A stretch of DNA of 20,422 nt. Source: an uncultured Candidatus Saccharibacteria bacterium (GTDB lineage: Bacteria; Patescibacteriota; Andersenbacteria; UBA10190; CAIZMI01). A program made the position numbers and the translations under genes. The notes under the pieces were generated by a model that was not told the DNA's origin, ran no database searches, and saw nothing but the letters and a program-made list of their open reading frames with translations. Positions 1 to 19,827 of the stretch are shown piece after piece. The first letter of the stretch is position 1. Each line of letters opens with the position of its first letter. The stretch is taken from contig CAYNDL010000016.1 of the NCBI GenBank assembly GCA_964396115.1, positions 1-20,422 on the forward strand, in the 5' to 3' direction.

Positions 1-1
1 A

Positions 2-88
2 ATCATCATTATTGGAGTAGCTGCCGCCGTAGTAAATTTTGTAATCGGAGCAATAACAGGGAATATCGGAACGGGCGGGACGATTTAG
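2..88 (+). CDS. 3' end of an upstream gene (partial); hydrophobic C-terminus ...IIIIGVAAAVVNFVIGAITGNIGTGGTI*
   Basis: Open frame 2 runs from the window edge to TAG at 86-88. The peptide is Gly/Ala/Ile-rich, like a membrane segment. No start codon is visible because the gene is truncated by the window. Confidence 0.3.
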   Translation: MIIIGVAAAVVNFVIGAITGNIGTGGTI

Positions 89-94
89 GCACAA

Positions 95-122
95 GAAAAA
101 ACGGCGACCTTGCGATCGCCGT
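95..122 (-). terminator. Rho-independent terminator for the minus-strand gene 153..962
   Basis: Inverted repeat ACGGCGA(101-107)/TCGCCGT(116-122). On the minus strand it is followed by a U6 run, seen as plus-strand A95-A100. It lies 30 nt past the stop of the 153..962 gene. Confidence 0.6.
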
Positions 123-152
123 TTCGATGAAACGAACAATTAGCCTGTTTTA

Positions 153-962
153 CTACTGTGCAAAGTAGGAAACCGGTACACCCGGCGTGTACTCGTTCAC
201 GTCCAGCTGTGTCGCGCTCTTCTCGATGTTAACCGTGTAACTGCCGGGACGGATCAGGCTGGTGGAAAAAACCAACTGTCCTTCACGCGGCGTTTGACGG
301 TAGACGGAGAAGGGGCGACCTCTTTCGGTAAACGCTGTTGCCGGTGTATTCAACAAGTGGACGTTTCCGTCCATCTCGCGGACCCCAACACGAAAGTGTT
401 CGATCACTCCTTGAGTGGAGATGTAGTAGCACTCGCGTGGTCGTAGAGGCAGCTGCGTATTGATAAGCTGCTTCGGACTATTGGGACCCCCGACCGTAAA
501 CTTGAGTGTCCACCGGTTGTTACCGTGGGAGATGAGCTGAAAACCATCACCAGCCGGTACCGTTCCCGAAAAAGACGGAATGGTACTTTGTTGTCGGCCA
601 GTCGTGATCTCCTGTCGCACATCACGGATCTCCTTGCGGATATCCTGGAGCACCTCACCGGTTACTTGGCCGCCCTTCTTCACTCCACGGTCGTAGATTT
701 CGGCGGAAGACTTCTTGTAGTCCTCTCGCTTCATAGCGACGATAGGCGGCTGTGAGGACGTCGGTGTCCCGGTCGATGCGGCGTCTTCTTTCTTGTGACT
801 CCTGCTCATCGAAAAGATGGCGAGTGTCACTAAGAGAAGCAATGGGCCGGATGCCATAATGGCCAACCCTGACCATCGCGGCATATTACCGGGGGAGAAT
901 CTCCACCAGAGGACTCCGCCCAGAAATAGGGCGAAGGACAGGAAAACCAAAAAGTAGTACAT
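153..962 (-). CDS. Hypothetical membrane protein (two N-terminal TM helices, soluble C-terminal domain), co-operonic with the SPFH gene
   Basis: 269-aa ORF with 2 N-terminal hydrophobic helices. Only a 10-nt gap separates it from the upstream SPFH gene. High GC3, same as its neighbour. Confidence 0.6.
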   Translation of the reverse strand: MYYFLVFLSFALFLGGVLWWRFSPGNMPRWSGLAIMASGPLLLLVTLAIFSMSRSHKKEDAASTGTPTSSQPPIVAMKREDYKKSSAEIYDRGVKKGGQVTGEVLQDIRKEIRDVRQEITTGRQQSTIPSFSGTVPAGDGFQLISHGNNRWTLKFTVGGPNSPKQLINTQLPLRPRECYYISTQGVIEHFRVGVREMDGNVHLLNTPATAFTERGRPFSVYRQTPREGQLVFSTSLIRPGSYTVNIEKSATQLDVNEYTPGVPVSYFAQ

Positions 963-972
963 GAAGGGCCTC

Positions 973-2145
973 CTATATTGTGATTCTGAGCCTTCTCAAG
1001 AAATTGATGCCCTCGTCCAAGATTCGCTGTCTGGCGTCGGGGGCGAGGCCTTGAGTCATGCTCTCCAACAAATCCATGAAGTTCCTGCCTGATCGAGAGC
1101 CGGTTGCTGTGGCGGTGAGATTAAACAGATCAGTGGGGAAGAGGATAGCCTTTCCACCCTTCGCTGCTTCTCTCAACGTGAGCAACTTTTCTGCAAGCTG
1201 ATTCTGGGCGGTTTCGTCGCCTCCGCCGCCCCTAATCGTTGCAAACAGGATACGGCGGGCTGTTGCCTCACCTTCACCAACGCGTTCGAGCCGGTACTTC
1301 TCTCCGTCTGCCCGGTGCATCGCCGCTCTTGCTTCAATGATCGCCACCTCTTCGTTGTTGATGACAGTCCGAAGAGCATCGGGCAGCTCAACTTTGGGCA
1401 ACGACATCGATATGCATGCGGAGTCGGTGATCCCAGACCGTCGCAACGCCAAGCCGCCAGCTTTTCGGGGATCGAGAAGAGTCTCTTCGATCTCTTTCTC
1501 GATTTTGTTGCGGTCGTTGTAGACATCAACCCAAGTATGGCGGGATGCGACACGTCGCATGGCATCGTCAACTTCCGGCCGGATCAGCTCGACAAGTGCC
1601 GCGCTTACACGGCCGTCGGGCCCAATGGGGGACGGTGCGTTGACTACGGCGGGGGAAAGATGGCTGACGTCCCACTGGAAGTTAACATTTACTTCCAGGT
1701 TCAGTTCAGCCGACCCCACATTCCGTAGTTCCTTCGTCCGTCCTTTTCCTATTCTGGACTTGCCCGGCATCGTTACAACGCGTCCCACTTCTATGGGGAT
1801 CTGCTGCATCGTCATCGGGAAACGGTGGACACGGAAAAAAGGGAAGAGGAGGAACACAATTCCTGTACCGAACAATCCTTTGTCCGGCGGGGAAACAGGA
1901 ATTCGGTTACCGTGACAATCGTCACGCCACCCTCTTTTTTCGTCCTCGGTCAAAGTGACCCCGATTTCCTTCATTAGCTTGCCCAAGAGGACAGGCTTCA
2001 GGCGTTCATTCTCGCGAACAAACATCATTGAAAGGCCGATCTCTCCCAGCCCCATGAAAGTCAGAGCCCAAGACCAGGGGTTAATGAACCCGGCCAAGGC
2101 GGTCATGAGAGTGAGGATAGAGACGACCATAAAAGGGAATACCAT
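973..2145 (-). CDS. SPFH/band-7 (stomatin/prohibitin-like) domain membrane protein; the true start may be internal
   Basis: The C-terminal two thirds match the SPFH pattern: hydrophobic anchor, a beta-rich core (...VVNAPSPIGPDGRVSAALVELIRPEV...), then an Ala/Glu/Arg-rich coiled-coil (AIIEARAAMHRADGEKYRLERVGEGEATARRIL). The N-terminal ~90 aa carry extra TM helices, so the annotated start may be over-extended. C-ending codons are preferred. Confidence 0.6.
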   Translation of the reverse strand: MVFPFMVVSILTLMTALAGFINPWSWALTFMGLGEIGLSMMFVRENERLKPVLLGKLMKEIGVTLTEDEKRGWRDDCHGNRIPVSPPDKGLFGTGIVFLLFPFFRVHRFPMTMQQIPIEVGRVVTMPGKSRIGKGRTKELRNVGSAELNLEVNVNFQWDVSHLSPAVVNAPSPIGPDGRVSAALVELIRPEVDDAMRRVASRHTWVDVYNDRNKIEKEIEETLLDPRKAGGLALRRSGITDSACISMSLPKVELPDALRTVINNEEVAIIEARAAMHRADGEKYRLERVGEGEATARRILFATIRGGGGDETAQNQLAEKLLTLREAAKGGKAILFPTDLFNLTATATGSRSGRNFMDLLESMTQGLAPDARQRILDEGINFLRRLRITI

Positions 2146-2287
2146 GAGATGTTTCCTTGTCTAGTAGGTTGTCGAAGTTACAGGGGTTTCTACCGTGAAA
2201 TCGTAGCTAATTAAACTGCGATATCACGAAAGAAATGACTAATAATATACGTTAAAAAGAAGATGGTATTGTATACCTTTTTTGCGA

Positions 2288-2310
2288 TTTTGTCAATCGT
2301 ACTGACAAAA
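2288..2310. promoter_or_regulatory. Perfect 8-bp inverted repeat TTTTGTCA-N7-TGACAAAA (operator-like) in the divergent promoter region
   Basis: TTTTGTCA at 2288-2295 and TGACAAAA at 2303-2310 are exact reverse complements. They sit in the AT-rich 286-bp divergent intergenic between the SPFH gene and 2432..3175. Confidence 0.35.
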
Positions 2311-2331
2311 CAGGTAATTAATAATAAAGTA

Positions 2332-2360
2332 TTGACAAGTTTTATATTTTATGTAAAAAT
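2332..2360 (+). promoter_or_regulatory. Sigma70-like promoter candidate for 2432..3175 (TTGACA -35, A/T-rich -10 TAAAAAT)
   Basis: TTGACA at 2332-2337, a 16-nt spacer, then TAAAAAT at 2354-2360. This is about 70 nt upstream of the ATG at 2432. Confidence 0.3.
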
Positions 2361-2431
2361 GTCGGGTTCTTTCGATAACGCATATTGAGCTTACCCAACC
2401 CGTATCCTCTTGTTTAAAGGAATCGAGACTC

Positions 2432-3175
2432 ATGCCTCCGACCGACCCCAACCAGAATCCCCAGAACCCCACGCCGGACCCCAACAATACCCAGGTTCCG
2501 AACAACACGCAGGTGCCGCCGGCCGGCCCGGCCCCCGTCGTCACGCAGACGACGACCGTCCAGAGCGACCCGTCGCAGACCCCACCGAATCCGGCCACTA
2601 CGACCACGACTGATCCGGCGCCCGCCGCTGGGGCGACGGCCACTGCTCCCGCTACCGCTCGTCGTACGAGCGGATGGCTCGGCAAGGCCGTGATGGTCTT
2701 GCTGCTGCTCCTGGTTGTCGCTCTCCTCGGTATCAGCGTGGCCTTCATGCAGGACATGTACGCGCGGCGCAACGCGGCTTCCCAGTCGCAACAGCAACAA
2801 GCGAGCGAGTCGATGATCGTCCCGGCCTCCGGCGCGAAGATCGCGATGGGGAAGGAAACCTACCAACGGGCGGCGGCCACGATCCATGATCGCGGTTATG
2901 CCCAAGGCCTCAAGGTTACCGGGATCGAGATGCTGGACCTCAACAAAGCGATCGAGGTCGGCATGGAAGGTGTACGGAAGTACTCCGCCATCGAATCCGG
3001 GGTTCAGCCTCCACCTGATCCGGTGCAGACCCCCGCGAATCCGGCTGCGCCGGCCACCAAGAAGACTTCGGCAACCTTTCCGAGTGCCTTCAAATCAGTG
3101 GTCGGACAGATGGATCCGAACGCCCTCATTCGGGTCAGCGACCTGACCGCCGCAGTCACCAAGGCGGAAAAGTAG
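2432..3175 (+). CDS. Single-pass membrane protein with a Pro/Thr/Asn/Gln-rich N-terminus (NNTQVP x2, poly-Thr) and a globular C-terminal domain; no recognisable family
   Basis: 247-aa ORF. A low-complexity P/T-rich N-terminus precedes one strong TM helix (AVMVLLLLLVVALLGISVAF) and a ~150-aa ordinary-composition C-terminus. A terminator follows it. Confidence 0.6.
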   Translation: MPPTDPNQNPQNPTPDPNNTQVPNNTQVPPAGPAPVVTQTTTVQSDPSQTPPNPATTTTTDPAPAAGATATAPATARRTSGWLGKAVMVLLLLLVVALLGISVAFMQDMYARRNAASQSQQQQASESMIVPASGAKIAMGKETYQRAAATIHDRGYAQGLKVTGIEMLDLNKAIEVGMEGVRKYSAIESGVQPPPDPVQTPANPAAPATKKTSATFPSAFKSVVGQMDPNALIRVSDLTAAVTKAEK

Positions 3176-3220
3176 CGGCAGGGCTCAGAAGTGTGCGTTT
3201 TTTTGGGTCTAGAACCCAGA

Positions 3221-3249
3221 GACGCGGATGAAAGTCCGCGTCTTTTTTT
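3221..3249 (+). terminator. Rho-independent terminator
   Basis: GACGCGGA(3221-3228) tgaaag TCCGCGTC(3235-3242), followed by T7 at 3243-3249. Confidence 0.8.
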
Positions 3250-3260
3250 AAAGTTTAATA

Positions 3261-3290
3261 TTGACAGAAACCGGAAAATGGGTACATAAT
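3261..3290 (+). promoter_or_regulatory. Sigma70-like promoter (TTGACA-N18-CATAAT) for the 3345..3935 gene
   Basis: TTGACA at 3261-3266 and TACATAAT at 3283-3290. A GAGGAG Shine-Dalgarno at 3333-3338 sits 7 nt before the ATG at 3345. Confidence 0.45.
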
Positions 3291-3344
3291 CTACGTTCTG
3301 CTGTTTTTGCCAGATTGTCATGTCCTTTCCCAGAGGAGCGGTTT

Positions 3345-3935
3345 ATGTTCCGGATTTGGATGGTTGTGAGTGCTTTATTGGTGGTCGCTTCCCCTGCAAT
3401 GGGGCAGCGGTACTACCGGTCAGGCTGTGCGTCCTGTGTCGCGGTCCCCGGCCAACAGGCGGTTTGCACGAACCCGGCGGTGTGCGGAGTGCCGATGGCG
3501 ACGGCCGTCGTTCAGCCGGCACAGCCCGTGCAACCGGCAGCGACGACGGCGCCGAGTACCCTCGCGTGCCCGAAGGAAGTCGCACCTGCGGTCTCTACGG
3601 CGCCTGCGGTAGTGGCTTCTACGCCCGCCGTTACTCCACCGGCAAACTCAACGCCGGCGGCAAAGTCGTCGAAGAGCGATGCGGACGCGATCCCCTCGAT
3701 CAACCCTCTTTTGAACAAGCCGGCTAAGCAGGAACCTCCTGCGGATAAGCCGGCGGCAGCCGAACCGGCTCAGGGGCCCCCGGAGGAATTCGTGCCGAAG
3801 TCCATGGTGGAAGCCGGCCTGAAGGCGGCCTTCCAGAAGGGCATCGCCGCGGAGAAGAAGAAGTACAAGATCCTCTCGAAGAACGAGGTCGACTCGCTGA
3901 TCGAGAAGATCGTCGACGAGATGGACAAGGAATAG
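3345..3935 (+). CDS. Secreted protein: signal peptide, Cys-containing N-terminal motif, long Ala/Pro/Thr/Val-rich linker, charged amphipathic C-terminus
   Basis: The start is placed at ATG 3345 (MFRIWMVVSALLVVASPAMG...) on the basis of the promoter and SD. The six-frame ORF runs in from 3261, but that extension would cover the promoter itself. There are 4 Cys in CASCVAVPGQQAVCTNPAVC, then PA/TA repeats, then KKKYKILSKNEVDSLIEKIVDEMDKE. Confidence 0.55.
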   Translation: MFRIWMVVSALLVVASPAMGQRYYRSGCASCVAVPGQQAVCTNPAVCGVPMATAVVQPAQPVQPAATTAPSTLACPKEVAPAVSTAPAVVASTPAVTPPANSTPAAKSSKSDADAIPSINPLLNKPAKQEPPADKPAAAEPAQGPPEEFVPKSMVEAGLKAAFQKGIAAEKKKYKILSKNEVDSLIEKIVDEMDKE

Positions 3936-3976
3936 CATCTCGAAGTCCTGACCCGAGAAATCAAGGGAGTGAGGCA

Positions 3977-4001
3977 GACGGGAATAAATCCCGTCTTTTT
4001 T
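3977..4001 (+). terminator. Rho-independent terminator of the 3345..3935 gene
   Basis: GACGGGA(3977-3983) ataaa TCCCGTC(3989-3995), followed by T6. Confidence 0.75.
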
Positions 4002-4006
4002 GTATG

Positions 4007-4032
4007 AAAAAACCGGCACGCATGCGTGCCGG
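4007..4032 (-). terminator. Rho-independent terminator of the 4056..4664 gene (20-nt perfect palindrome plus U-run on the minus strand)
   Basis: CCGGCACGCATGCGTGCCGG at 4013-4032 is a perfect palindrome. It is preceded by A6 on the plus strand, which is U6 after the hairpin on the minus strand. It lies 24 nt past the minus-strand stop. Confidence 0.7.
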
Positions 4033-4055
4033 TGATCGATCTTGGTTCGAGGCGA

Positions 4056-4664
4056 CTATTCCTCGAATTTCCGGTAGTACTGGAACGTCCCTGTGGCATT
4101 CTCGGGAGCAGCCGGTTGCTGGATGATGTACGTCGGCTGGTTGATTGTGACGTTGACCGGTCGGTCGTCTTCATGAGGCGAAGCGCCGGAGCCCCAGTAG
4201 TACCATGGCCGGGATGGAACGCTGTGAGGAGGCCGGAGAAGGGGAGGTGTCCAACCACCCCAGTAGTTGCCATAGTCACCGGTGTAGTAACTCCAGAACG
4301 GAGCACCGCGATACCAGGGGAAGTACGTTCCTCCCCCAGGAACCCAACCGCCCCAACTGCTGCCGTAATTGCCGGTGTAGTGACTCCACATGGGAGCGCC
4401 CACCCTGTAGGGGACGTAGGTGCCGCCGCGCGAAACAGGTGTGCCGCCGAGGAACGACGGGGTGTGGTGAGGTACAGCTCTCACTGGACTCCCGATGTGG
4501 GTTACACCACTCGGTTTGAAGGAGGGCGCATGCGGGACACTTGGAGGACAGAAGCCGCGAGTCGGTGGATTGAACCTGACCGAGGGCGGGTGTCCAACGG
4601 GTGGTCCCGCGAACAGCGGAACCGCCATTCCAGATGCCAAGATGGTAAGAATGAACAATCGCAC
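4056..4664 (-). CDS. Secreted Gly/Tyr/Trp/Pro-rich protein with two tandem ~31-aa aromatic-glycine repeats; GTG start
   Basis: 202 aa with a signal peptide (MRLFILTILASGMAVPLFA). The repeats are GGTYVPYRVGAPMWSHYTGNYGSSWGGWVPG and GGTYFPWYRGAPFWSYYTGDYGNYWGGWTPP. A GAGGAG SD sits 8 nt before GTG at 4662-4664. A terminator follows it. The antisense ORF 4026..4709 is a GC-shadow. Confidence 0.55.
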   Translation of the reverse strand: MRLFILTILASGMAVPLFAGPPVGHPPSVRFNPPTRGFCPPSVPHAPSFKPSGVTHIGSPVRAVPHHTPSFLGGTPVSRGGTYVPYRVGAPMWSHYTGNYGSSWGGWVPGGGTYFPWYRGAPFWSYYTGDYGNYWGGWTPPLLRPPHSVPSRPWYYWGSGASPHEDDRPVNVTINQPTYIIQQPAAPENATGTFQYYRKFEE

Positions 4665-4740
4665 GGGTATTCTCCTCTGAAAAAGCGCCGGTACATCAGG
4701 AACAGGTAACGGCTATTTATACCACGTTTTATACTTTATT

Positions 4741-5146: not shown

Positions 5147-5227
5147 GGGCACGTGGCGGAACGGTATACGCGCATGGCTTAGGACCATGTGACGCAAGTC
5201 GTGTGGGTTCGATTCCCACCGTGCCCA
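5147..5227 (+). tRNA. tRNA-Leu (anticodon UAG), type II with long variable arm; CCA not encoded
   Basis: Manual fold. Acceptor GGGCACG/CGTGCCC is perfect. The D-stem is 3 bp with G18G19 in the loop. Anticodon stem CATGG/CCATG is perfect, and loop CTTAGGA gives U33 and anticodon TAG. The variable arm is 13 nt. T-arm is GTGGG TTCGATT CCCAC, and the discriminator is A. Confidence 0.85.
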
Positions 5228-5229
5228 CA

Positions 5230-5485: not shown

Positions 5486-5866
5486 ATGCTGATCCTCACT
5501 ATCCAAGGTATCCCCCAGATGAACGAGGAACTTTTGGCACGTTTCATTAGGGATTTGCAGTTCGGCATTAACAGCATCGCCGAGCTAGGAATCACTCCCA
5601 TGAACGTGACCGTGTTTATGCCGTCGGATAGGGTGCAGGAAGGTCTTGGAGACGAGCTGATATGCACCATTTACTCACTCCCAGACATCACAAAAAACGC
5701 GCTCCGCTTTCGTCTCATGAAGCATGTGTACTGGCTGATCTGCGGCTTTGCAAGAACGAATCTCGAGGAGTGCAAGAAGGTCGCTGTTGTTTTTCCTCCA
5801 ATCAACATCCGCGACCATATGGAAGGAGACCCACATACCTTTTCTGATCAACCCAGCCACGGCTAG
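5486..5866 (+). CDS. Hypothetical protein, 126 aa, no recognisable domain
   Basis: ORF with AGGA 8 nt upstream of the ATG. A clean terminator overlaps its stop. Composition is typical of the host-like moderate-GC region. Confidence 0.45.
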   Translation: MLILTIQGIPQMNEELLARFIRDLQFGINSIAELGITPMNVTVFMPSDRVQEGLGDELICTIYSLPDITKNALRFRLMKHVYWLICGFARTNLEECKKVAVVFPPINIRDHMEGDPHTFSDQPSHG

Positions 5867-9987: not shown

Positions 9988-10198
9988 GAAGCGTTGGAGG
10001 AATCCCTGAAGCAAGGTTTTAAGGGATCCCTCGGGCGTTCCCTTATCATCATTCGTGCCGTAGCTTTCCAGGAACGCGTATCCTGTTCTTGGTCTCTACA
10101 CACACATGGTTTATTGAAGTGTTGGTACACTTCTCAAAAACCTTGTTGCGTGGCGATCAGAGAAGGGAACGAAGGCAGCGGAAAGAAAGGTAAAAAAT
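9988..10198 (+). promoter_or_regulatory. Structured rpsO-pnp intergenic region / pnp 5' leader (hairpins; likely processing/autoregulation site)
   Basis: 210-nt non-coding gap. It holds imperfect hairpin GGAATCCCT...AGGGATCCC (10000-10035) and perfect hairpin GAAGTG ttggta CACTTC (10118-10135). The E. coli pnp leader is a known RNase III/PNPase autoregulatory target. Confidence 0.35.
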
Positions 10199-12310
10199 AT
10201 GGAATTTCCTAGTTCTCGGGAATTTAAAAAAACCATCGCTGGAGAAGAGTTTATTTTAAAGGTTGGAGGTCTAGCTCCACAAACAGACGCCTCGGTCTCG
10301 TGCCAGGTTGGCGGTACTTTCGTATTGGCAACTGTAGTTATGGCGAGTACAGCGCGGCCCGGTGTCGATTATATGCCACTATTGGTTGAATATGAGGAAA
10401 AGTATTATGCCGCAGGGAAAATAAAAGGTAGCCGTTTTGTTAAAAGGGAAGGTCGACCGACTGACACGGCAATTACGACGAGCCGAATGATCGATAGGGC
10501 GCTTCGTCCACTTTTCCCGGATAACATGTTGAATGATGTCCAGGTTGTAACAACAGTCTTGTCTTACGACGGTGAACACCAAACTGATGTTCCGGCCATG
10601 ATCGCAGCTAGTGCCGCCTTGTCTATCTCACGAGTGCCGTGGGCTGGACCACTTGGCGCGGTACGTGTTGGAAGAGTCGATGGAAAGTTCGTAGTAAATC
10701 CGTTAGTAGCCAGCTTCGATAAAAGTGATCTGGATTTAATTGTCTCAACTACTACCGAGGAAGTGGTGATGCTTGAAGCTGACGGCAAAGAAGTGGCAGA
10801 TGCTGATCTTTTTGAAGCAATCAAATTCGGGCGGGAGGAGTCTGTTGAAATAGCTAAGTTAATTGCGGAAATCCAAAAAGAGATTGGCGTTGCGAAATCC
10901 GAATACATTTCGGCAACCGCGTCGCCTGAACTGACCGAAAAGGTACGAAATGCAGCTTTGCCGACGGCTCAAGAGATCGTAAGTGCTGGTGGCAAGAAAA
11001 TGGATATAGAGAACAAGTTCGCTACTTTGACCGATAAAATTATTGCGGATTTGGCTTTGGAGGCAAATGATGCGAGTTTGGCAAAAAAGGTTGTTCGAGA
11101 CACATACCGGGAAGTCGTCCGTGACTTCATTCTTGATTCTGGAAAACGCGTAAACAACAGGAAGGTTGATGAGGTTCGTGAAATTAAAGCACAGGTAGGA
11201 GTAATTCCAAGAACTCACGGCTCAGCCCTTTTCCAGAGAGGGGAGACGCAGGTTTTAACTACAGTTACCCTCGGTGCTCCCGGTGATTCCATGATCCTGG
11301 ATACAATGATTGATGAGGAGTTCGAGAAACGCTATATGCACTTCTATAATTTCCCCGGTTTTTCTGTACATGAAGTACGGCCGAATCGAGGACCTGGCCG
11401 GCGCGATATCGGACACGGTGCCCTAGCGGAACGAGCACTGGCACGGTTGATTCCGAATAAGGAACAATTCGGCTATACCGTTATGGCAGTTTCTGAAGTT
11501 CTATCGTCTAATGGTTCCAGTTCAATGGGTTCAGCTTGCGGTAGCTCGCTTGCTTTGATGGATGCTGGTGTTCCGGTGCCTGCCACTGTCGCTGGTATTG
11601 CTATGGGGTTGGTAACTGATGAGAAAGGGCAGAATCGTAAGCCTGTGGTTTTGACCGATATCGCTGGAATGGAAGATGAAGGTTGCGATATGGACTTCAA
11701 GGTTGCAGGTACAAGAAATGGTGTTACTGCGTTGCAAGTTGATATCAAGACTCATGGTCTCCCATTGGAGATTATTGAAGAAGCTATCAAGGGAGCTCGA
11801 GTTGCCCGCCTGCACATAATGGAAACCATGGAGGCCGCAATAAAAGAACCAAGAAAAGAGATGTCTCCTTATGCTCCACGTCTCCTCACTATTCGTATAA
11901 ATCCTGAAAAGATCGGTGACCTTATCGGTCCAAAAGGAAAGAATATTAACCAGATTATTGCGGAAACAAAGGTAGATATCGATGTAGAGGATGACGGTCT
12001 GGTAACCATTACTGCGAAAGACGGCGATTCAATGGAAAAAGCTAAACAGATGGTTGAAAGCCTTACTAGGGAAGTTGTTGCTGGTGAACGCTTTGACGGC
12101 CGCGTTACGCGTATTATGAAGTTCGGAGCTTTCGTCGAAGTTCTCCCTGGAAAGGAAGGTCTGGTGCATATCTCAGAGCTAGCCCCTCAACGAGTCAACA
12201 GGGTAGAGGATATCGTTAAAATCGGTGACGTCATTCCTGTTGTGGTGACCGAGATAGACGATCAGGGAAGAATTAACCTTTCTCACAAGCGCGCAAAACA
12301 TGTAAACTAA
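10199..12310 (+). CDS. pnp: Polyribonucleotide nucleotidyltransferase (PNPase): two RNase PH domains, KH and S1
   Basis: 703 aa. Diagnostic motifs include GEEFILKVGGLAPQTDASV, FFQRGETQVLT, HGSALF..., MAVSEVLSSNGSSSMGSACG, KIGDLIGPKGKNI (KH) and the C-terminal S1 GERFDGRVTRIMKFGAFVE. Confidence 0.95.
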   Translation: MEFPSSREFKKTIAGEEFILKVGGLAPQTDASVSCQVGGTFVLATVVMASTARPGVDYMPLLVEYEEKYYAAGKIKGSRFVKREGRPTDTAITTSRMIDRALRPLFPDNMLNDVQVVTTVLSYDGEHQTDVPAMIAASAALSISRVPWAGPLGAVRVGRVDGKFVVNPLVASFDKSDLDLIVSTTTEEVVMLEADGKEVADADLFEAIKFGREESVEIAKLIAEIQKEIGVAKSEYISATASPELTEKVRNAALPTAQEIVSAGGKKMDIENKFATLTDKIIADLALEANDASLAKKVVRDTYREVVRDFILDSGKRVNNRKVDEVREIKAQVGVIPRTHGSALFQRGETQVLTTVTLGAPGDSMILDTMIDEEFEKRYMHFYNFPGFSVHEVRPNRGPGRRDIGHGALAERALARLIPNKEQFGYTVMAVSEVLSSNGSSSMGSACGSSLALMDAGVPVPATVAGIAMGLVTDEKGQNRKPVVLTDIAGMEDEGCDMDFKVAGTRNGVTALQVDIKTHGLPLEIIEEAIKGARVARLHIMETMEAAIKEPRKEMSPYAPRLLTIRINPEKIGDLIGPKGKNINQIIAETKVDIDVEDDGLVTITAKDGDSMEKAKQMVESLTREVVAGERFDGRVTRIMKFGAFVEVLPGKEGLVHISELAPQRVNRVEDIVKIGDVIPVVVTEIDDQGRINLSHKRAKHVN

Positions 12311-12345: not shown

Positions 12346-14028
12346 ATGAATCAAGACCAACAACGCGAAATTCCCAAAACACCGCAAAAGGCAGCAGAAG
12401 AAGCTCTTTCTGCTACTTTTGCTATGCCTTTTATTCGCACTATGGCCGACGACCTTCTTGAGGCATCGCGGGGAACGCCTCCGGTTGTACAGCAGGTGCC
12501 AGTTAACGGAGTAACCCCACAAAGGAATGCAGAACCTAATAATGCTCCTGAGGTATTTTATGGCGATCCCAGGAAGGCTAATATTCCGATTCCACAAGTT
12601 AGGATTGGGGGCGTTGCAAAGTCACAGCAGCAAGTTAAGGGGAACGAAGTTTTTCTACCTGAAACTGAGAAAAGGAAGGGTGTTGGTCTAAGTTTGGTAG
12701 TTGGTGTCATTCTTGCTTTAGTTATATGTGGCGGTGTCTGGGGCTCGTGGCTTTTGTGGCCACGTGAATCGGGAACAATAGCTGACAAAATTCCGGCAGA
12801 GGCGGTCGCTTTTATGAATGTGAGTCGGGAAAAAGGCGTGTTGCAGCAGGTCGCACTTGATAGTTTCATTGGCGATTTTGGCTTAACCAAGGAAAAACTC
12901 GGAGATAGCTGGAACAACATTGTTTACGTAGCGCTTCCCGGTGCATCACCCTCAGAGCCGATAAAGATGCTTCTTGTTGATGGGCAAGCGCCCCAAACTG
13001 ATAACCCAAACATCGTTGTAAAAACTTTGGCCTCTGGCGCTACAGCCTTGATCGAAGCTGCACAATCCGGGAGAGTCGATGGCCTAAGCAATAAACCTCT
13101 CGGCAAAACTAATGACTTTAGGCGTTTGGTGGGTAAGTTGCCTCAAGGAAATGAATATTTGTACATACGGCAGGGGCAAGTGCCGACGTTTTTGAAGTCT
13201 TATGTTTATCTGCCCATAGATGTTGATTATTCAACATTGATAACGTTTGCGTCTGAAATGAAGCAGGGGACAGTGGCGGTATACGGAATGAATAATGGAC
13301 CGAAGAAAAAAGTCAGCAACGAGCAGGTAGTGTGGCAGAACATGTTGAAACCGGTCCCGGTTTCCGTCGTCGCTGCTGCTGGTCACAATAATCTAGAGGC
13401 AAATGTGGATGAGTGGCGCCTGGGTCAGTCCAACAACGCCAAAATGCAAGATTTCTTGAACGCCCTAAATGCTCGTTCCAAGACATTAACGGATCTCAAA
13501 AATGTGACTACGGGTCGTTATGTGGCAGGATCGTTGAGGGAGACAATCGACGGATTTGCTGTAATAGAGTTGAAAGAGAATAGCCGTGAAACTGCAGTTG
13601 CTGGGATGAATGGTCTCGAGGAAGCATTCAATAAACTTGGGCAGCTTATCGGTAATGCATCGTACGCCGATGCCTCGTTTGGAGAAACGTCCTATAAAGA
13701 TGTAACCATCCGTTTTGTGAATTTCGGTGACGCTAACCATACTTTTGACTACGCGGTACTGGACAACTTGTTGGTAGTGTCTACGTCGAAAGATAGTATG
13801 TTTGAATTAATTAATACTTACCAAAATCAAGACCAAGGAGCCTCGTTCATGTCGTTACTTGCAGGGCTTAACGCTGGCGCTGGTCAGTGGCAATATGTAC
13901 GTTTGGACAGTGCTGCCACATCTAAGGTACCAGCACTCTGGGTGACAATTTTCAGGCCTTTTGCGTTCCTATACATCGAACCAAGCAGTACACCCCAGGC
14001 ATTCAGCGGGATTGTGGCAATTCCATAG
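12346..14028 (+). CDS. Large hypothetical membrane-anchored protein (cytoplasmic N-terminus, one TM near residue 110-140, ~420-aa extracytoplasmic domain)
   Basis: 560-aa ORF with TM helix GVGLSLVVGVILALVICGGVWGSWLLW. No SD. No recognisable catalytic motif. A strong terminator follows it. Confidence 0.55.
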   Translation: MNQDQQREIPKTPQKAAEEALSATFAMPFIRTMADDLLEASRGTPPVVQQVPVNGVTPQRNAEPNNAPEVFYGDPRKANIPIPQVRIGGVAKSQQQVKGNEVFLPETEKRKGVGLSLVVGVILALVICGGVWGSWLLWPRESGTIADKIPAEAVAFMNVSREKGVLQQVALDSFIGDFGLTKEKLGDSWNNIVYVALPGASPSEPIKMLLVDGQAPQTDNPNIVVKTLASGATALIEAAQSGRVDGLSNKPLGKTNDFRRLVGKLPQGNEYLYIRQGQVPTFLKSYVYLPIDVDYSTLITFASEMKQGTVAVYGMNNGPKKKVSNEQVVWQNMLKPVPVSVVAAAGHNNLEANVDEWRLGQSNNAKMQDFLNALNARSKTLTDLKNVTTGRYVAGSLRETIDGFAVIELKENSRETAVAGMNGLEEAFNKLGQLIGNASYADASFGETSYKDVTIRFVNFGDANHTFDYAVLDNLLVVSTSKDSMFELINTYQNQDQGASFMSLLAGLNAGAGQWQYVRLDSAATSKVPALWVTIFRPFAFLYIEPSSTPQAFSGIVAIP

Positions 14029-14049
14029 AAATTTAAAAAGTAAAAAACA

Positions 14050-14077
14050 GGAGACACGACTGTCTCCCGTTTTTTTA
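14050..14077 (+). terminator. Rho-independent terminator
   Basis: GGAGACA(14050-14056) cgac TGTCTCC(14061-14067) cg, then T7. Confidence 0.8.
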
Positions 14078-16372
14078 ATGGACGATCATTTCATTACCTT
14101 TATTGATTTAAGCATTAACACGAGTCTGTCGGCGGTCTGCTCTTAAATTAAAAACTAACGTATTACCAGTATGGCAATAAAAACCAATAGTGAAGTGTGA
14201 ATGATCAACAGAAAGTATTGTATGAGGATGAAGTCTGGGATGATCGATCTGTGCCAACAAATTGAAGCAGTATTCCATGACAGGCGATTACACGGTTTTA
14301 GTTGAACCCATTGCTCGCCAGCCAACTTCTTTAAAGGAGAAATGTATATTTGTTATTGATACTTAATTTGTTCTAATGATTTTCGCTTCAAAAATAATTA
14401 GAAAATTCTTTTAGGTTTATATCAAACAGTTAACTCAAATCAATCACGTACTCGTCATACATCCTAAATATAAAAATAATTGACTAAGCTTATTTAAAAA
14501 TGAATAAAGTTGCTAATAATCTAAACAGAAAAAAGATTGGCCGTTAAAAAAAATAAAGGCACACGAAGATTGAATAAACCCGTAACCATTTGGTGCAATC
14601 AAAGCAAAACTCTTAACAGTAAAATCATAATTTAATAAAATATTTAGCTCTTAAAAATACTAAAAAATGTCATCGGTTGAAGACAATGAAAATGAAACGC
14701 ATAAAATATGAATGCATAAATAATATGGTCGCATTCAATATTAGTGCTCTAAGATAGCACGCGAATAATTTGTATATATTTTATTGTGCTGCATTGTAAC
14801 TCATCACATAAAAATTAATCGAAAGCTCAAGAAGTAAGAAAAAATGGATTTCAATACTAGTTCAAAATGAATCACATAATCGATAACAAAATTAAAAAAT
14901 AAAATAATAATCAGCAAAAATAGTTATACAAAATTATTTGTACAATTAATTTACAAAATGAGTTAAATAAAGCGATATGCAAATAGCGAACAAATTCTTA
15001 TTCAAAAATATTTATATCAGCAAAAAAACCTTTTTAAAAAAAGCGTGTTTAGTTTTCCGGTGGGGAAGGGTAGTAGCAAAAAAAACATTAACGATATTCA
15101 CATAAAAATTATTGAATTTTAAAAAACAATTGTTTTTCTTAACACTCATAGACTTTAAAAAAGTAATAATAAAGTAGGTGTACAACAAAAGTAGTCAAGC
15201 TGAACATTATTTGTGTACAGCCAAAATTGCTATCAAATACTTACGCTATGCCGAAAACAAACAGAGGTTTACTGATGCAAAAAGTATCAATGTCGCAAAT
15301 ATTATTGCGACAAATATTTTAAAGGTTGAAATACACGATCATTAATCTCATAAAATTTACAAAAAACTTATTATTATTCTTCGCTGACTTTTGTTTCACT
15401 TGCAAAGTATTTTGGGTTTATTATTTTCGTTCTGCTTGTAGCAAAATAAATCCAAGACCTAGGAATAATTTTCAAATGAGATAATTTATGGTTACTGAAT
15501 ATTAATATTTAAGTTAACTTGTAATGCGAGTTGTATATGCGTCATAAAATGACTAAGTGTGTTGTGTATGCGTAAATTGTTAAAGAAGCATGAGTTAGTT
15601 TTGTCCTCGAAAAAATCTTTATGTGAATCGATGACTAAAGTTTTGCTTGTACTCTGTCCTTAATTAAGATGTGGTGGACATAGCGGGGAGGAGTATTGGC
15701 AGTAAAAATCACGATGATACCGTGGCGTGTTTAATAAGTGACAGTCTTTTTATGGGATGTGGAAAAGTTGCAATATAGCTAACAAAATATTGTTAAATTT
15801 AGTCTATAATTTTTTAGATCTAGGCTTGGTATATTGCCCTATAAGGGCTTTTTTAAATAATTTTTGTCCAAAGATATTGACGGGAGGCAAAAGTTCTGCT
15901 ATTATTAGTTATGTAGTAAGTTAGTTCGTTAGAAATTTAATATCCGATTGGTCGAAGGTTCCTCAAAAAAATCGGAGTCACCGTTCGACCACTAATCTCC
16001 CCCTATTAGTGGTCGTACGGTGTCTCTGACCAAATGAGTGTGCACGCACTCGCTATAAAAACAAACACAAACAACCTCGAAAAGATTGCACCATTGATCT
16101 TTGGAGGAACTAAGCGGTTAGAAAAAGAGTTTTTGGGAGATTAATCTTTTTCTCTACCAGAAGATCGGAGTCACTAACTTGCTCTGCGTGCAGAAGAGTA
16201 AGTGCATCGCTCCACGCGTCTAGAAGTCATGGCCTCCATGCACTTTTGTACGGAATAAATTCTGTTCAAAAGCGCATGGATGCCGTGCTGATTCGTGGGG
16301 CTAAGCCCCACTAGGCATATAACATTTTTTATGGCCAATCATGTGGGGCTTTTCCTTTATTAACAAACATTT
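14078..16372. other. ~2.3-kb extremely AT-rich tract, A-rich on the plus strand, with no ORF of 60 aa or more on either strand (non-coding or degraded DNA)
   Basis: The six-frame track has no ORF between 14146 and 16373. By eye GC is under ~30%, against low-to-mid 40s in the flanking genes. Runs of A dominate the plus strand. It is bounded by a terminator (14050-14077) and the next gene start (16373). Confidence 0.6.
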
Positions 16373-16738
16373 ATGTCACTCGAAAAAGAATTTGTAGAGC
16401 AGCAAAAAGAAACTTTATTACAAGAAAAGAAAAAAATTGAAGAAGAACTAAAAACATTTACAGCAAAGGATTCTAAACTTGCTGGTGATTATGATGCAAA
16501 ATTTCCTGACTACGGACGAAGTGAATCGGAGAACGCCCAAGAGGAAGAAGAGTATTACTCCCGCGTGGGTAGGGAAGGTTTGCTTGAAACACAATTAGTC
16601 AAAGTTAACTCTGCCTTGAAAAACATTGAAGCCGGTAAATATGGTCTTTGCGAAAAATGCGGTTCAGAAATTGAAAAAGAACGTTTACAAGCAGAACCTG
16701 CTGCCGTAACTTGTCTTGAACACAAGTCTAATCGGTAA
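16373..16738 (+). CDS. TraR/DksA-family zinc-finger protein (variant Cx2C-x17-Cx2H finger)
   Basis: 121 aa. An acidic coiled-coil N-terminus is followed by the C-terminal GKYGLCEKCGSEIEKERLQAEPAAVTCLEH, which is DksA/TraR-like. The 4th ligand is His rather than Cys. Confidence 0.7.
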   Translation: MSLEKEFVEQQKETLLQEKKKIEEELKTFTAKDSKLAGDYDAKFPDYGRSESENAQEEEEYYSRVGREGLLETQLVKVNSALKNIEAGKYGLCEKCGSEIEKERLQAEPAAVTCLEHKSNR

Positions 16739-16760: not shown

Positions 16761-17198
16761 ATGGTCAGACAAAAAACATTCATTGTTGTGATTGCAGCCG
16801 CTGTGGTTGCGTTTGATTTATTTGTAAAATCTCTTGCGGCGGAAAAATTACCTGGCAGTCTTCATGTTGGTTTTGTCGGGTACTATTTTAATGAAAGAGG
16901 CTTGTTTGGGCTTGCACCATTACCTGTGACAATTTTTATTTCTTTAGGTCTCCTGGTTGTTTTTTCTTGGCTGTTTTTGAACACGAAGTCCTTTGCGGAA
17001 AAGACAGCAGTGACATTGATCGTGGCTGGAGGTCTTAGTAATTTTATCGAAAGAATAACCAAGGGAGGTACGACAGATATTTTTATCGTAGGGAAACTCG
17101 GTGCTTTTAACGTCGCAGATGTTGTTATCGTTATTGGGATAATGCTGGTTACAATTAGACAACTTCGGGTTACAAGAACGAAACGACCAAGCGTTTAA
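16761..17198 (+). CDS. lspA: Lipoprotein signal peptidase (signal peptidase II)
   Basis: 145 aa with 4 TM segments. Conserved LspA blocks are present (...GGLSNFIERITKGGTTDIFIVGKLGAFNVADVVIVIG...), with the catalytic Asp in FNVAD. Confidence 0.8.
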   Translation: MVRQKTFIVVIAAAVVAFDLFVKSLAAEKLPGSLHVGFVGYYFNERGLFGLAPLPVTIFISLGLLVVFSWLFLNTKSFAEKTAVTLIVAGGLSNFIERITKGGTTDIFIVGKLGAFNVADVVIVIGIMLVTIRQLRVTRTKRPSV

Positions 17199-17622: not shown

Positions 17623-17691
17623 GTAGTAGTGCTAACTGCTCTTTAATTAACTCGAGTTTCAAATAACAATTAATAAAAATAAGGAGGTGAA

Positions 17692-17850
17692 ATGATGTCT
17701 GCAGGGGGGAAGAAAAAAGGCTGGAGAAGATCCCGACGGGTCTTTTACGACGATGCATATCTTGAGAGCGGCCTTTCAAAGGGGGAAGCAGAACGCAGAG
17801 CTTGGAAAGCGATATCGATGATTGAGTTTTCTAAGAGAAGCAAAATTTAA
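17692..17850 (+). CDS. Small basic protein, 52 aa (MMSAGGKKKGWRRSRRVFYDDAYLESGLSKGEAERRAWKAISMIEFSKRSKI); absent from the ORF track because it is under 60 aa
   Basis: A perfect SD AAGGAGGTGA at 17681-17690 sits 2 nt before an ATG-ATG start. A terminator lies immediately downstream. The overlapping minus-strand ORF 17582..17779 has no such signals. Confidence 0.5.
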   Translation: MMSAGGKKKGWRRSRRVFYDDAYLESGLSKGEAERRAWKAISMIEFSKRSKI

Positions 17851-17866
17851 TAAATAGCTTAACAGC

Positions 17867-17895
17867 AGGCTCCGCATTCAACGGAGCCTGTTTGT
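17867..17895 (+). terminator. Rho-independent terminator
   Basis: AGGCTCCG(17867-17874) cattcaa CGGAGCCT(17882-17889) GTTTGT. Confidence 0.6.
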
Positions 17896-17924
17896 ATAAA
17901 AGTTAAAAACCATAGCCGTATGGG

Positions 17925-18218
17925 CTATGGTTGGGGAAGGGTCGTCTTCTGGGGGATCGGTGGACGGAAGGGGAGTCGTGCTGGGTGTCTTCCTTCGACG
18001 ATCCGAAATTGAAACGTTTTTCCTGGTAACAGTGCCTGGATCTTTTCACGTGATTGCTCACCGAGGATAATCAGATCCCGTTTAAAGCGGCTGTCGAGGA
18101 AAACTTGGTAAAACCCCAGTAGTGCCTTGACCTCGGGATCCAGCCACTCACTGCCAGTTCTCCTGAGGACAGTAAAGCGTAGTCCCAAGAGATTCGGTAG
18201 GGTATCGGGCAGCTCCAT
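17925..18218 (-). CDS. Hypothetical protein, 97 aa, transcribed divergently from comM/yifB
   Basis: ORF only. No confident domain. Proline-rich C-terminus. Confidence 0.4.
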   Translation of the reverse strand: MELPDTLPNLLGLRFTVLRRTGSEWLDPEVKALLGFYQVFLDSRFKRDLIILGEQSREKIQALLPGKTFQFRIVEGRHPARLPFRPPIPQKTTLPQP

Positions 18219-18318
18219 GCGAGTTCTCCAAAATGAACAAGAAACGGGTCACTAGAAAATAATTTAGATTACGCATCAGGTCAATGTGTAATTTAATATA
18301 TGAACGTATAATATATTC

Positions 18319-19827
18319 ATGTCATCTTTAGTTCACTCAGTTACGATTATTGGCCTTGATGCCGAACCCATAGATGTTGAAGTGGAAGTAATGCCAGGAC
18401 TGCCTAGTGTTACTATTGTTGGTTTACCCGATGCTGCCGTCAAAGAAGCAAAGGAGCGAATAACCGCCGCTTTGGTTAATTCCGGGTTTATACCTCCGCG
18501 TCATAGAACTATCGTAAATCTTGCACCTGCTCATTTAAGGAAGGAGGGGCCACAATTCGATTTACCGATCGCACTGGCTTTCCTGCTTGCATCCGGTCAA
18601 CTTACTGCAAAGGTGGAGAACTTGGTGTTTTCTGGTTCGCTAGGGCTCGACGGATCATTACGGCCGATCTTGGGCAGTGTGGCTGTCGGGGAGTTTGTTG
18701 GTTCAAAAAAGGATCTCATTTTGTTTGTACCAAAGGAGAATGCACAAGAGGCATTATTGGCCGGGGGCAGAGTCTTCGGAGTTGATAGTTTGCGGGACAT
18801 TGTTGATTTTCTTGAGAAAAGAAAAGAATTATTCCTAGCGGAGCGTAGGAACGATAATAACGAACAAAATAATGTATTCTCTGATTTTGCGGAAATTGCC
18901 GGTCAGGAACATGCGAAAAGAGCGTTGGAAGTTGCGGCTGCTGGAGGACATAATGTTCTTTTGCATGGTCCGCCCGGCTCGGGCAAAACATTGTTAGCTC
19001 GGGCTTTTGCCGGAATACTTCCACCGTTAAGTAAGGATGAGGCGTTTCAAGTTACCAAAATTTACAGCATCAAGGGTCTACTGTCAGTACGGGAATCATT
19101 AATGACGCAACGACCTTTTCGATCGCCACACCATTCGACATCAGCGGTCGCCTTAATTGGCGGAGGAACATCACCTCAACCAGGGGAAGTAACGCTCGCA
19201 CACCGCGGTGTCTTGTTTTTAGACGAGTTCGCCGAATTTCCGCGTCATGTTCTCGAACACCTGCGGCAACCTCTTGAGGATGGATATGTGACTGTGAGTA
19301 GAGCAGCAGGAAGCCATGCATTTCCTGCACGCTTTTCACTAGTTGCAGCAATGAATCCTTGCCCCTGCGGTTTTTCAGGAGACACTGGCCGAGTCTGTAC
19401 TTGTAGCTCGGGAGAAATTGCGAGGTACCAGAGAAAAATTTCGGGTCCTCTTCTGGACCGTATTGATCTTCATGTACATGTGCCGGCTGTCCGTGCTGAT
19501 ATTGTTCTTGATACATTCACATCGGAACCTTCTGTTGATGTAAGGCATAGGATAATTAATGCCCGATCCAAACAAACGCAAAGATTTGGCCGCTCAATAA
19601 CGAACGCAGAAATGGGTGGAGAAGAGATCAGAAAACACTGTGTGCTGTCGATGGAAACGAGGAATCTCCTAGCGAAAGCAGCCGACACCCTTAAACTTAG
19701 TACACGTGCAGTGCACCGGACGATGAAGGTAGCCCGAACAATAGCTGATTTGGAAGGTGCTGAAGGGGTCGAGAAGGACCATTTGGCAGAGGCCCTTCAA
19801 TACAGGACTCCTCTAGCGGATCCTTGA
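18319..19827 (+). CDS. comM: YifB/ComM family Mg-chelatase-like AAA+ ATPase
   Basis: 502 aa. The N-terminal Lon-like ChlI domain is present (VEVEVMPGLPSVTIVGLPDAAVKEAKERI...NLAPAHLRKEGPQFDLPIA). Walker A is GPPGSGKT and Walker B is VLFLDEFAEF. The Cys cluster CPCG...C.C and the C-terminal Mg_chelatase_C region are also present. Confidence 0.9.
   Translation: MSSLVHSVTIIGLDAEPIDVEVEVMPGLPSVTIVGLPDAAVKEAKERITAALVNSGFIPPRHRTIVNLAPAHLRKEGPQFDLPIALAFLLASGQLTAKVENLVFSGSLGLDGSLRPILGSVAVGEFVGSKKDLILFVPKENAQEALLAGGRVFGVDSLRDIVDFLEKRKELFLAERRNDNNEQNNVFSDFAEIAGQEHAKRALEVAAAGGHNVLLHGPPGSGKTLLARAFAGILPPLSKDEAFQVTKIYSIKGLLSVRESLMTQRPFRSPHHSTSAVALIGGGTSPQPGEVTLAHRGVLFLDEFAEFPRHVLEHLRQPLEDGYVTVSRAAGSHAFPARFSLVAAMNPCPCGFSGDTGRVCTCSSGEIARYQRKISGPLLDRIDLHVHVPAVRADIVLDTFTSEPSVDVRHRIINARSKQTQRFGRSITNAEMGGEEIRKHCVLSMETRNLLAKAADTLKLSTRAVHRTMKVARTIADLEGAEGVEKDHLAEALQYRTPLADP

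Follow-up and report, generated by a model that had tools for sequence, protein, structure and literature searches.

The gene-free tract at positions 14078-16372 of the window (the whole stretch analysed, 20,422 nt of contig CAYNDL010000016.1, assembly GCA_964396115.1, from an uncultured Candidatus Saccharibacteria bacterium) is likely a composite, in which an unconserved, AT-rich filler is followed by a conserved gene for a structured non-coding RNA of ~445 nt (Table 1). Within the limits of the resources searched, this RNA is a previously undescribed family, and it is most likely, to judge from its sequence, a stable structured RNA that doubles as a terminator-containing leader of the dksA-like gene and lspA that follow it. 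The first-pass annotation, made from the letters alone, had treated the tract as a single object explained by no standard feature class. Something non-standard is indeed present, but not as one object, as only the last ~500 nt align among relatives, and the statement on feature classes proves half right, the 3′ part being a promoter-RNA-terminator gene of a family outside Rfam.

Five independent assemblies, from three JGI metagenomes and two SRA runs, contain the tract sequence at 99.97-100% identity, and in two of the five it lies within a 1.018-Mb contig, probably a complete genome; the tract is therefore no assembly artefact, a possibility that the annotation itself had raised. The 560-aa gene upstream stops at 14028 and the DksA/TraR gene starts at 16373; on neither strand does the DNA between them, at 14147-16372, hold an open reading frame (ORF) of at least 60 aa, the longest ORFs inside the tract being of 55-58 aa, and three-base periodicity, 4-8 in the flanking genes, collapses to 0.2-1.5 over the tract. 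The claimed lack of ORFs, the suggested check of coding potential and the two proposed boundaries, a terminator upstream and the next gene start downstream, came out as first described. Since 16% of composition-matched shuffles likewise lack any ORF of at least 60 aa, the missing long ORFs are expected at the composition of the tract, and since an exact repeat of at least 14 nt occurs in 16% of shuffles, the near-repeats listed earlier lie at chance level; a search of the tract returned no multi-copy repeat family and no periodic repeats, at 36-40 nt or at any other lag. GC content in 500-nt windows is 0.25-0.33 over 14001-15500, against ~0.46 in the neighbouring genes, and AT skew is maximal (+0.27) at 14501-15000. 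The earlier description of AT-rich DNA with an A-rich plus strand accordingly fits 14078-15876, at 29% GC, and fails for 15912-16356, where GC is 44% and the skew is zero. The third of the GC-richer islands noted at that stage is real, although it belongs to the RNA gene, a separate conserved element and not a part of one larger object.

Conservation and fold of the RNA

Contigs of relatives with the same synteny as the window have a gap of 2.5-2.8 kb at the same place, and pairwise blastn of the gaps of the window and of two of these relatives (L007 and L008) aligned only the last ~500 nt, at 76-84% identity, the remainder being variable and unaligned, so that the proposed comparison with relatives gave a different answer for each part of the tract. 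The RNA shares 76-84% of its nucleotides with L007 and L008, as against ~37% identity for the adjacent 560-aa protein, which implies strong selection on the RNA in a ~1-Mb genome. It is preceded by a putative sigma-70 promoter of the form TTGAC(G/T)-17-TGC-TAT(G/T)(A/C)T, kept in all 12 homologs for which upstream sequence is available, and the position of this promoter puts the 5′ end of the RNA at ~15912 and its length at ~445 nt. Homologs were found at 16 loci of Parcubacteria-related Candidate Phyla Radiation (CPR) bacteria; at every one of the 16 the RNA lies directly 5′ of a DksA/TraR-type zinc-finger gene on the same strand, with lspA coming next except in L023 and in the truncated L017. 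Nine of the homologs (L010-L018) came from a scan of GTDB genomes and JGI metagenomes with 18-20-nt patterns of the most conserved hairpin, and L020, L021, L023 and L024 are contigs reached through distant PNPase proteins, independently of the RNA pattern, on which nhmmer recovered the RNA with E-values of 2e-75, 1e-50, 1e-21 and 6e-21, respectively. A further contig, L025 from Andersenbacteria, which was outside the training set of the covariance model, matched the hairpin-domain model at 28 bits (E = 2e-5) and shows the same gene order, although the gene after the matched domain has no Pfam zinc-finger match. A search with the DksA-like protein gave one extra match, on a contig that ends 163 nt upstream and is too short to show the RNA. 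The metagenome hit L019 was discarded as a chance match to an 18-mer and is no homolog. On the short Logan contig L009, a 22-mer (AATTTCTACTACCTGGTATGCC) stands at positions 1 and 148, probably as an assembly-graph artefact, and the contig is uninformative on RNA upstream of its DksA-like gene.

The conservation is that of a structured RNA and not of a protein. Variable columns are spread without codon-phase bias (0.77, 0.76 and 0.70 by phase), and no ORF within the RNA is conserved among the homologs. A 32-aa ORF starting at the TTG of UUGGAGGA was considered and rejected, as it is present in eight homologs, is interrupted in the window, L008, L012, L014, L015 and L021, and shows no codon-phase bias. 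RNAalifold predicted pairs with compensatory changes in 18 of 134 cases for three sequences, 44 of 111 for 12, 53 of 103 for 14 and 51 of 92 for 15. When the 12-sequence structure was counted explicitly, 96.8% of cells were paired, against 43-47% in slid controls, 45 pairs had changed on both sides (11-22 slid) and covariation was 0.351 (at most 0.094 slid); none of 500 shuffles reached the observed pairing and covariation values. The window RNA alone has a minimum free energy of -166.6 kcal/mol, with a folding z of -9.3. The stem of helix 2 is invariant in close relatives and fully covaried in L023, L024 and L025, with its loop kept, and 23 of the 37 pairs of the long irregular hairpin have changed on both sides. 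In the terminal 9-bp stem, 100% of cells are paired and five of nine pairs show compensatory changes, and the tail that follows it is CUUUUCC, CUUUUUC or CUUUUUUU in all homologs. The RNA contains 30-nt invariant blocks. The second copy of CGGAGUCAC could take the place of the first and pair with GGUGUCUCUG (16019-16028) in 96.8% of cells, in columns that are nearly invariant. A kissing interaction between UAAUCUCCC of the helix 2 loop and GGGAGAUUA (16133-16141) was rejected, the second hairpin giving way to unrelated sequence in L012, L014, L020 and L021.

Table 1. Positions of the RNA, its elements and the surrounding features; positions refer to the window except for geneX, which is given on the contigs of relatives.
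Feature	Position	Strand	Basis or remark
Intrinsic terminator of the upstream 560-aa gene	14050-14077	+	Terminator scan; bidirectional hairpin
Filler (AT-rich, no ORF, unconserved), in the variable slot that separates the RNA gene from the 560-aa gene	14078-15876	.	Composition, periodicity, conservation
Terminator-like hairpin GCCCTATAAGGGC with T run, just before the RNA promoter	15836-15854	+	Terminator scan; this genome only, not in the alignment
Putative sigma-70 promoter of the RNA	15877-15905	+	-35 TTGACG (15877-15882), 17-nt spacer, extended -10 TGCTATTAT (15897-15905)
Conserved structured non-coding RNA gene, ~445 nt	15912-16356	+	Predicted 5′ end from the promoter, predicted 3′ end from hairpin and U tract
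Helix 1, long-range	15950-15958 with 16089-16099	+	Alignment, predicted pairs
Helix 2, long hairpin with invariant C-rich loop CUCCCCCU (15997-16004)	15972-16029	+	Inverted repeat I1; most conserved element of the RNA
Helix 3, small hairpin	16036-16051	+	Predicted fold
CA-rich single-stranded linker	16055-16078	+	Alignment, predicted pairs
Conserved UUGGAGGA	16101-16108	+	GGAG predicted to pair with UUCC of the 3′ tail
Hairpin, swapped for unrelated hairpins in distant members	16114-16158	+	Alignment
Universally conserved unpaired motif ACCAGAAGAUCGGAGUCAC, containing the second CGGAGUCAC copy	16156-16174	+	Repeat D12; first copy in the 5′ strand of helix 2
Hairpin with conserved CGUGCA loop	16176-16203	+	Predicted fold
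Long irregular hairpin (helices 10/11), sequence variable, structure kept	16209-16302	+	Richest in compensatory changes
Terminal hairpin AAGCCCCAC...GUGGGGCUU, then UUUUCCUUU	16303-16361 (hairpin 16303-16351)	+	Putative intrinsic terminator, RNA 3′ end
DksA/TraR C4 zinc-finger gene	16373-16738	+	Pfam
lspA	16761-17198	+	Pfam
geneX	L015 2003-3382; L020 7433-8878; L021 11625-13034; L024 5583-7130		Orphan, N-terminal membrane anchor

The assignment to a new family rests on searches of several kinds. Rfam 15, whose families include RNase P RNA types A and B, tmRNA, 6S, SRP RNA, T-box, OLE, GOLLD, ROOL, HEARO and raiA, returned only the tRNA-Leu from the window at the gathering threshold, only noise of at most 23 bits from the tract at E-values up to 10, and only tRNAs and noise from eight divergent homolog loci at E-values up to 1. 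ARAGORN found no tmRNA in the window, only the tRNA-Leu, the phage, plasmid and viral-contig collections searched do not contain the RNA element, and full-text literature searches yielded no description of such a CPR RNA. It would be conceivable that the RNA is a very divergent form of a universal RNA such as RNase P RNA, tmRNA, 6S, SRP RNA or a T-box leader, as its size would fit, it is single copy in the window, its promoter is strong and it is present in every relative examined; GGAGGAAA and CAGAAG..CGG may also bear a vague resemblance to known motifs. However, the negative Rfam and ARAGORN results speak against this, the 5′ and 3′ ends do not pair with each other, and neither a tRNA-like domain nor a tag ORF is present, leaving the idea with hardly any credence.

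In its general character the RNA recalls the OLE, GOLLD, ROOL, HEARO and raiA motif RNAs, which are likewise several hundred nt long with many covarying helices among conserved unpaired nucleotides, have a narrow phylogenetic range and were discovered by comparative genomics in uncultured or poorly studied bacteria. It differs from these in that no sequence or structure match is given by the Rfam covariance models, in its Parcubacteria-related CPR hosts, in its strictly fixed context 5′ of a dksA-like gene and lspA, and in that its terminator abuts the next ORF. Large structured bacterial RNAs are also treated in PMC12286853.

A possible leader of dksA-lspA or stand-alone RNA

The proposed mechanism holds that the RNA would be transcribed from its own near-consensus extended -10 promoter, ending at the covarying hairpin and CUUUUCC, and that it may accumulate as a discrete folded molecule, which is suggested because the UUCC of the 3′ tail is predicted to pair with the internal GGAG. 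The U tract is separated from the dksA ATG by 16 nt in the window, by 16-20 nt when L011, L013 and L018 are included and by 16-110 nt across the homologs. As no -10 element or separate dksA promoter is recognisable in the short spacers of the window, L011, L013 and L018, dksA-lspA would be transcribed largely by read-through of the terminal hairpin, which could thus serve as an attenuator and set how strongly the DksA-like regulator and signal peptidase II are expressed. A candidate antiterminator lies at the base of the long hairpin, whose 3′ strand (for example GUGGGGCU) is complementary to the 5′ strand of the terminator (AAGCCCCAC), the two strands varying in concert between species. In this alternative (B:C) pairing, 82% of cells are paired and covariation is 0.245, against at most 0.17 in slid controls, with weak pairing in L007 and L016, and the duplexes average -10.5 kcal/mol when strands are matched by species and -8.2 kcal/mol when they are mismatched; the pairing is a lead, not a result.

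Like attenuation leaders of the riboswitch, T-box or ribosomal-protein type, the RNA lies on the same strand as, and immediately 5′ of, an operon, has its own promoter (12/12 loci) and presents a GC-rich hairpin and U tract ahead of the start codon of the ORF, together with a candidate for a mutually exclusive terminator pairing. It is unlike them in that ~445 nt exceeds any known riboswitch or T-box leader, in that Rfam detects no known aptamer or T-box sequence, and in that the switch helix closes a sequence-variable hairpin and not a conserved ligand pocket, with moderate support for the antiterminator; in addition, the 3′ tail seems to be an integral part of the fold, as it would be in a free-standing RNA. 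The RNA might instead be purely trans-acting, a stable housekeeping or regulatory RNA (part of a ribonucleoprotein (RNP), a protein sponge or a ribozyme) whose adjacency to dksA-lspA is inherited synteny. This deserves serious attention, if not preference, as the promoter is strong and near consensus, the fold is large and multi-domain with its 30-nt invariant blocks, the tail is held by GGAG:UUCC as would be expected of a terminated, discrete molecule, and the region from PNPase to ComM is wholly syntenic, so that linkage is uninformative. However, with dksA starting 16-20 nt past the U tract and no recognisable promoter between, some read-through seems unavoidable, and the association with dksA extends to the remotest homologs, including L023, in which lspA is not the next gene. 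A stable discrete RNA and a leader or attenuator are compatible and do not exclude one another, and a structured RNA that is also the leader of dksA-lspA is, on the features of the locus, most likely.

Several points weigh against that reading. The ends of the RNA, its abundance and the read-through into dksA are all deduced from sequence. With 82% of cells paired, the antiterminator falls clearly short of the 97-100% seen in the main helices; it breaks down in L007 and L016, and it could have arisen from the likeness between two GC-rich helices. In the terminator, the internal loop is large and CC breaks up the U tract, so that it may be weak or chiefly structural, and the whole neighbourhood is syntenic, so that the linkage to dksA may reflect general synteny rather than function. 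Further, the finding of part of the homologs by the pattern of the C-loop hairpin inflates the apparent invariance of that element; the C-rich loop is also kept in L020-L025, which were found through proteins.

The AT-rich filler and the variable slot

The 29% GC of the filler (38.9% A, 32.1% T) is set against 35-47% in the other intergenic DNA and 39-45% at third codon positions of the same window, and its folding z of +1.4 and -1.4 shows no excess structure. The large AT-rich transcript once proposed does not survive in this part, which is unconserved, although a real RNA, of 445 nt at 44% GC, does exist beside it. Compared with the slots of relatives, the filler shows no conservation, with the sole exception of a marginal similarity of 15160-15379 to L008, in which a local score of 30 stands against a null of 22 ± 2.2 (z ~3.6) at ~58% identity; residual homology is a possible explanation for this similarity. 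A six-frame Pfam scan at E-values up to 1 revealed no domain in the filler, tblastn and profile hidden Markov model (HMM) searches with geneX found no remnant of that gene there while the positive control worked, the phage, plasmid and viral collections gave no match, and the filler contains no integrase or transposase, no terminal repeats and no direct repeats beyond chance. We infer that decayed or foreign DNA without sequence-level function is the best description of the filler, which retains one of the earlier suggestions for 14078-15876, with no detectable remnant, and drops it for the RNA part; the alternative explanation by a recently pseudogenised ordinary gene finds no trace in either the Pfam scan or the geneX searches.

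In seven genomes, dksA is separated from the 560-aa gene by 2.3-3.1 kb of unrelated content, with local GC of 20-59%. The slot holds ORFs of 291 aa in L007, 144 aa in L010, 300 aa in L013 and 364 aa in L017, and none in the window and L008, where the ORF-free slot DNA is at 21-29% GC; against Pfam, PHROG and NCBIfam the orphan ORFs gave only weak, sub-threshold matches and nothing informative. In L015, L020, L021 and L024, the slot is filled by homologs of geneX, orphan membrane proteins of ~460-515 aa related to one another at blastp E-values of 1e-31 to 4e-7; geneX (~470 aa) has no match in Pfam or NCBIfam. It was probably the ancestral occupant of the slot and is lost from the clade of the window. 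The segments that contain the slot ORFs of L013 (2616-3518) and L017 (1897-2991) have 50-59% GC, considerably more than the respective genomes, and the L017 slot has long ORFs on both strands; such contents suggest a recurrent landing site for foreign DNA. A slot segment of ~200 nt that is absent from the window is 75% identical between L007 (~10142-10344) and L010 (~5536-5739) and reads as a common minus-strand peptide (...GQFMNCPYA...); it could represent a second RNA or else a conserved small gene.

The low GC of the filler is compatible with dead DNA drifting over a long time under AT-biased mutation, with a foreign insert rich in AT or with a compositional constraint. The first of these, under which one ordinary gene or two, geneX being the most plausible, decayed and drifted to AT-richness to leave the filler, is a credible account that falls short of being probable. 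It is favoured by geneX homologs in exactly this slot in four relatives, by a slot size of 1.8-2.6 kb that comes near to geneX plus spacers, by the marginal similarity to L008, and by the established AT bias of bacterial mutation. However, no geneX similarity or Pfam domain is left, the spacer persists in all seven genomes although small CPR genomes usually delete dead DNA, and the GC-rich orphan ORFs in the slot of other relatives point to insertions. A horizontal origin of the filler, as AT-rich DNA or the remnant of a mobile element at a recombination hot spot, is rather unlikely, even if it would account for 29% GC so far from the intergenic and third-codon-position GC of the genome and for unrelated sequences of 20-59% GC in the same slot of different genomes; that foreign DNA enters this genome is indicated by a block of 55-66% GC beside the tRNA-Leu of the window. 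The phage, plasmid and viral collections and the search for mobility genes and repeats lend this no help, and the occurrence of the same anomaly at the same place in L008, with marginal similarity, suggests common descent over independent insertion. The filler resembles pseudogene remnants and AT-rich acquired islands in being ORF-free, without codon periodicity, AT-richer than the genome and of variable content, and is unlike them in that residual homology, whether to protein families or to the gene ancestral to the slot, is absent, as are mobility genes and insertion scars, and in that seven divergent small genomes keep a similar spacer length.

Not all observations agree with DNA that is merely decayed or foreign. 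The GC of the filler is far below that of intergenic DNA and third codon positions in the genome, an anomaly that recurs in L008 at the corresponding location; a compositional constraint, or some function that the sequence does not reveal, may be at work, and geneX decay and foreign origin are both presumptions.

Two other readings of the tract carry little weight. The battery of proteins shorter than 60 aa that had been envisaged is very improbable. Several ORFs of 20-58 aa are present, and the JGI gene caller called one short ORF of 55 aa (15178-15345). However, there is no three-base periodicity, no short ORF is conserved in any relative, the number and length of the ORFs are as expected for the composition, the 55-aa ORF has a GVG-type start (GTG) and no room for a ribosome-binding site, and the weakly similar region of L008 has no ORF. 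Just as implausible is a single giant non-coding RNA spanning all 2.3 kb, or a CRISPR or TIGR array of guide RNAs or repeats, although the tract has no long ORFs, its plus strand is rich in A, a terminator and a gene start delimit it, and TIGR arrays, which have a repeat period of ~36-40 nt and lie beside a Nop-domain tas gene, do occur in CPR bacteria (PMC12045711). Conservation and structure are confined to the last 445 nt, a terminator-like hairpin and the conserved promoter separate the two parts, there are no periodic repeats at any lag and no multi-copy repeat family, and no Nop-domain or Cas gene is found among the window proteins scanned. For the curved or silenced regulatory domain that had also been envisaged, no support came up, with tools not suited to a test of it.

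Neighbouring genes and significance

The gene order of the window is ClpB, S15, PNPase, the 560-aa protein, the tract, the dksA-like gene, lspA, a Transgly_assoc protein and ComM. The closest named relatives of the PNPase, at 57-60% identity, are labelled 'Parcubacteria group bacterium' and 'Candidatus Andersenbacteria'. The 560-aa protein (H560, window 12346-14028) has only five relatives among 5.8 billion clusters, at 36-39% identity, and a search of GTDB genomes found no relative by that route; its only domain hint is a weak, sub-threshold Pfam match to DUF3352 (18.5 bits against a cut-off of 26.8), with no NCBIfam match. H560 and geneX are two lineage-specific orphan families with N-terminal membrane anchors and a conserved order after PNPase. 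In the DksA-like gene, third-position GC is 0.26 and A3 is 0.44, against 0.39-0.45 in the neighbours, and the compositional anomaly therefore reaches beyond the ORF-free tract.

Elsewhere in the window, positions 1-4700 are at 52-66% GC, compared with ~46% for the rest, and end a few hundred bases before the tRNA-Leu (5147-5228), which looks like a horizontally acquired island at a tRNA site; the GC-rich stretch extends past the left edge of the window, and no copy of the tRNA-Leu 3′ end occurs elsewhere within it. The ComM/YifB-like gene (ATG 18319) has a perfect TATAAT ending 7 nt before the start codon and no Shine-Dalgarno sequence (18290-18321), an arrangement that suggests a leaderless mRNA, and several further genes of the window also lack a Shine-Dalgarno sequence. 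In the gap between the Transgly_assoc gene and ComM (17623-18318; 696 nt, 45% GC), the only ORFs set by gene callers are one of 51 aa and one of 97 aa on the minus strand, without a family. A chromosomal replication origin was considered for the tract and rejected, there being one DnaA box with one mismatch in the tract, a window total at chance and no skew switch; cumulative GC skew of the window rises monotonically.

Structured bacterial RNAs of more than 400 nt are rare, and those characterised are ribozymes, RNP scaffolds and, more recently, self-assembling RNA cages. The CPR, or Patescibacteria, are a huge and mostly uncultured radiation with tiny genomes, and to our knowledge almost nothing is known of RNA-based regulation in them. 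Proteins of the DksA/TraR type bind the secondary channel of RNA polymerase. It is a speculative but conceivable proposal that the RNA represents a new class of large functional RNAs, specific to Parcubacteria- and Andersenbacteria-related CPR bacteria, either an unusually large sensing leader or a ribozyme or RNP scaffold, whose conserved 5′ domain (C-rich loop, CA-rich linker, GGAGGA and duplicated CGGAGUCAC) may recognise some factor of the cell and thereby control whether transcription proceeds into the genes for the DksA-like regulator and signal peptidase II, with the variable, compositionally odd spacer of 1.8-2.6 kb maintained as relevant to the locus. The fixed coupling to a DksA/TraR-type factor provides a concrete handle, namely whether the terminator responds to that protein or to another signal. 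More generally, AT-rich gaps that look 'empty' in metagenome-assembled genomes can harbour RNA genes missed by annotation; judged by composition alone, this one would have been put in the wrong class.

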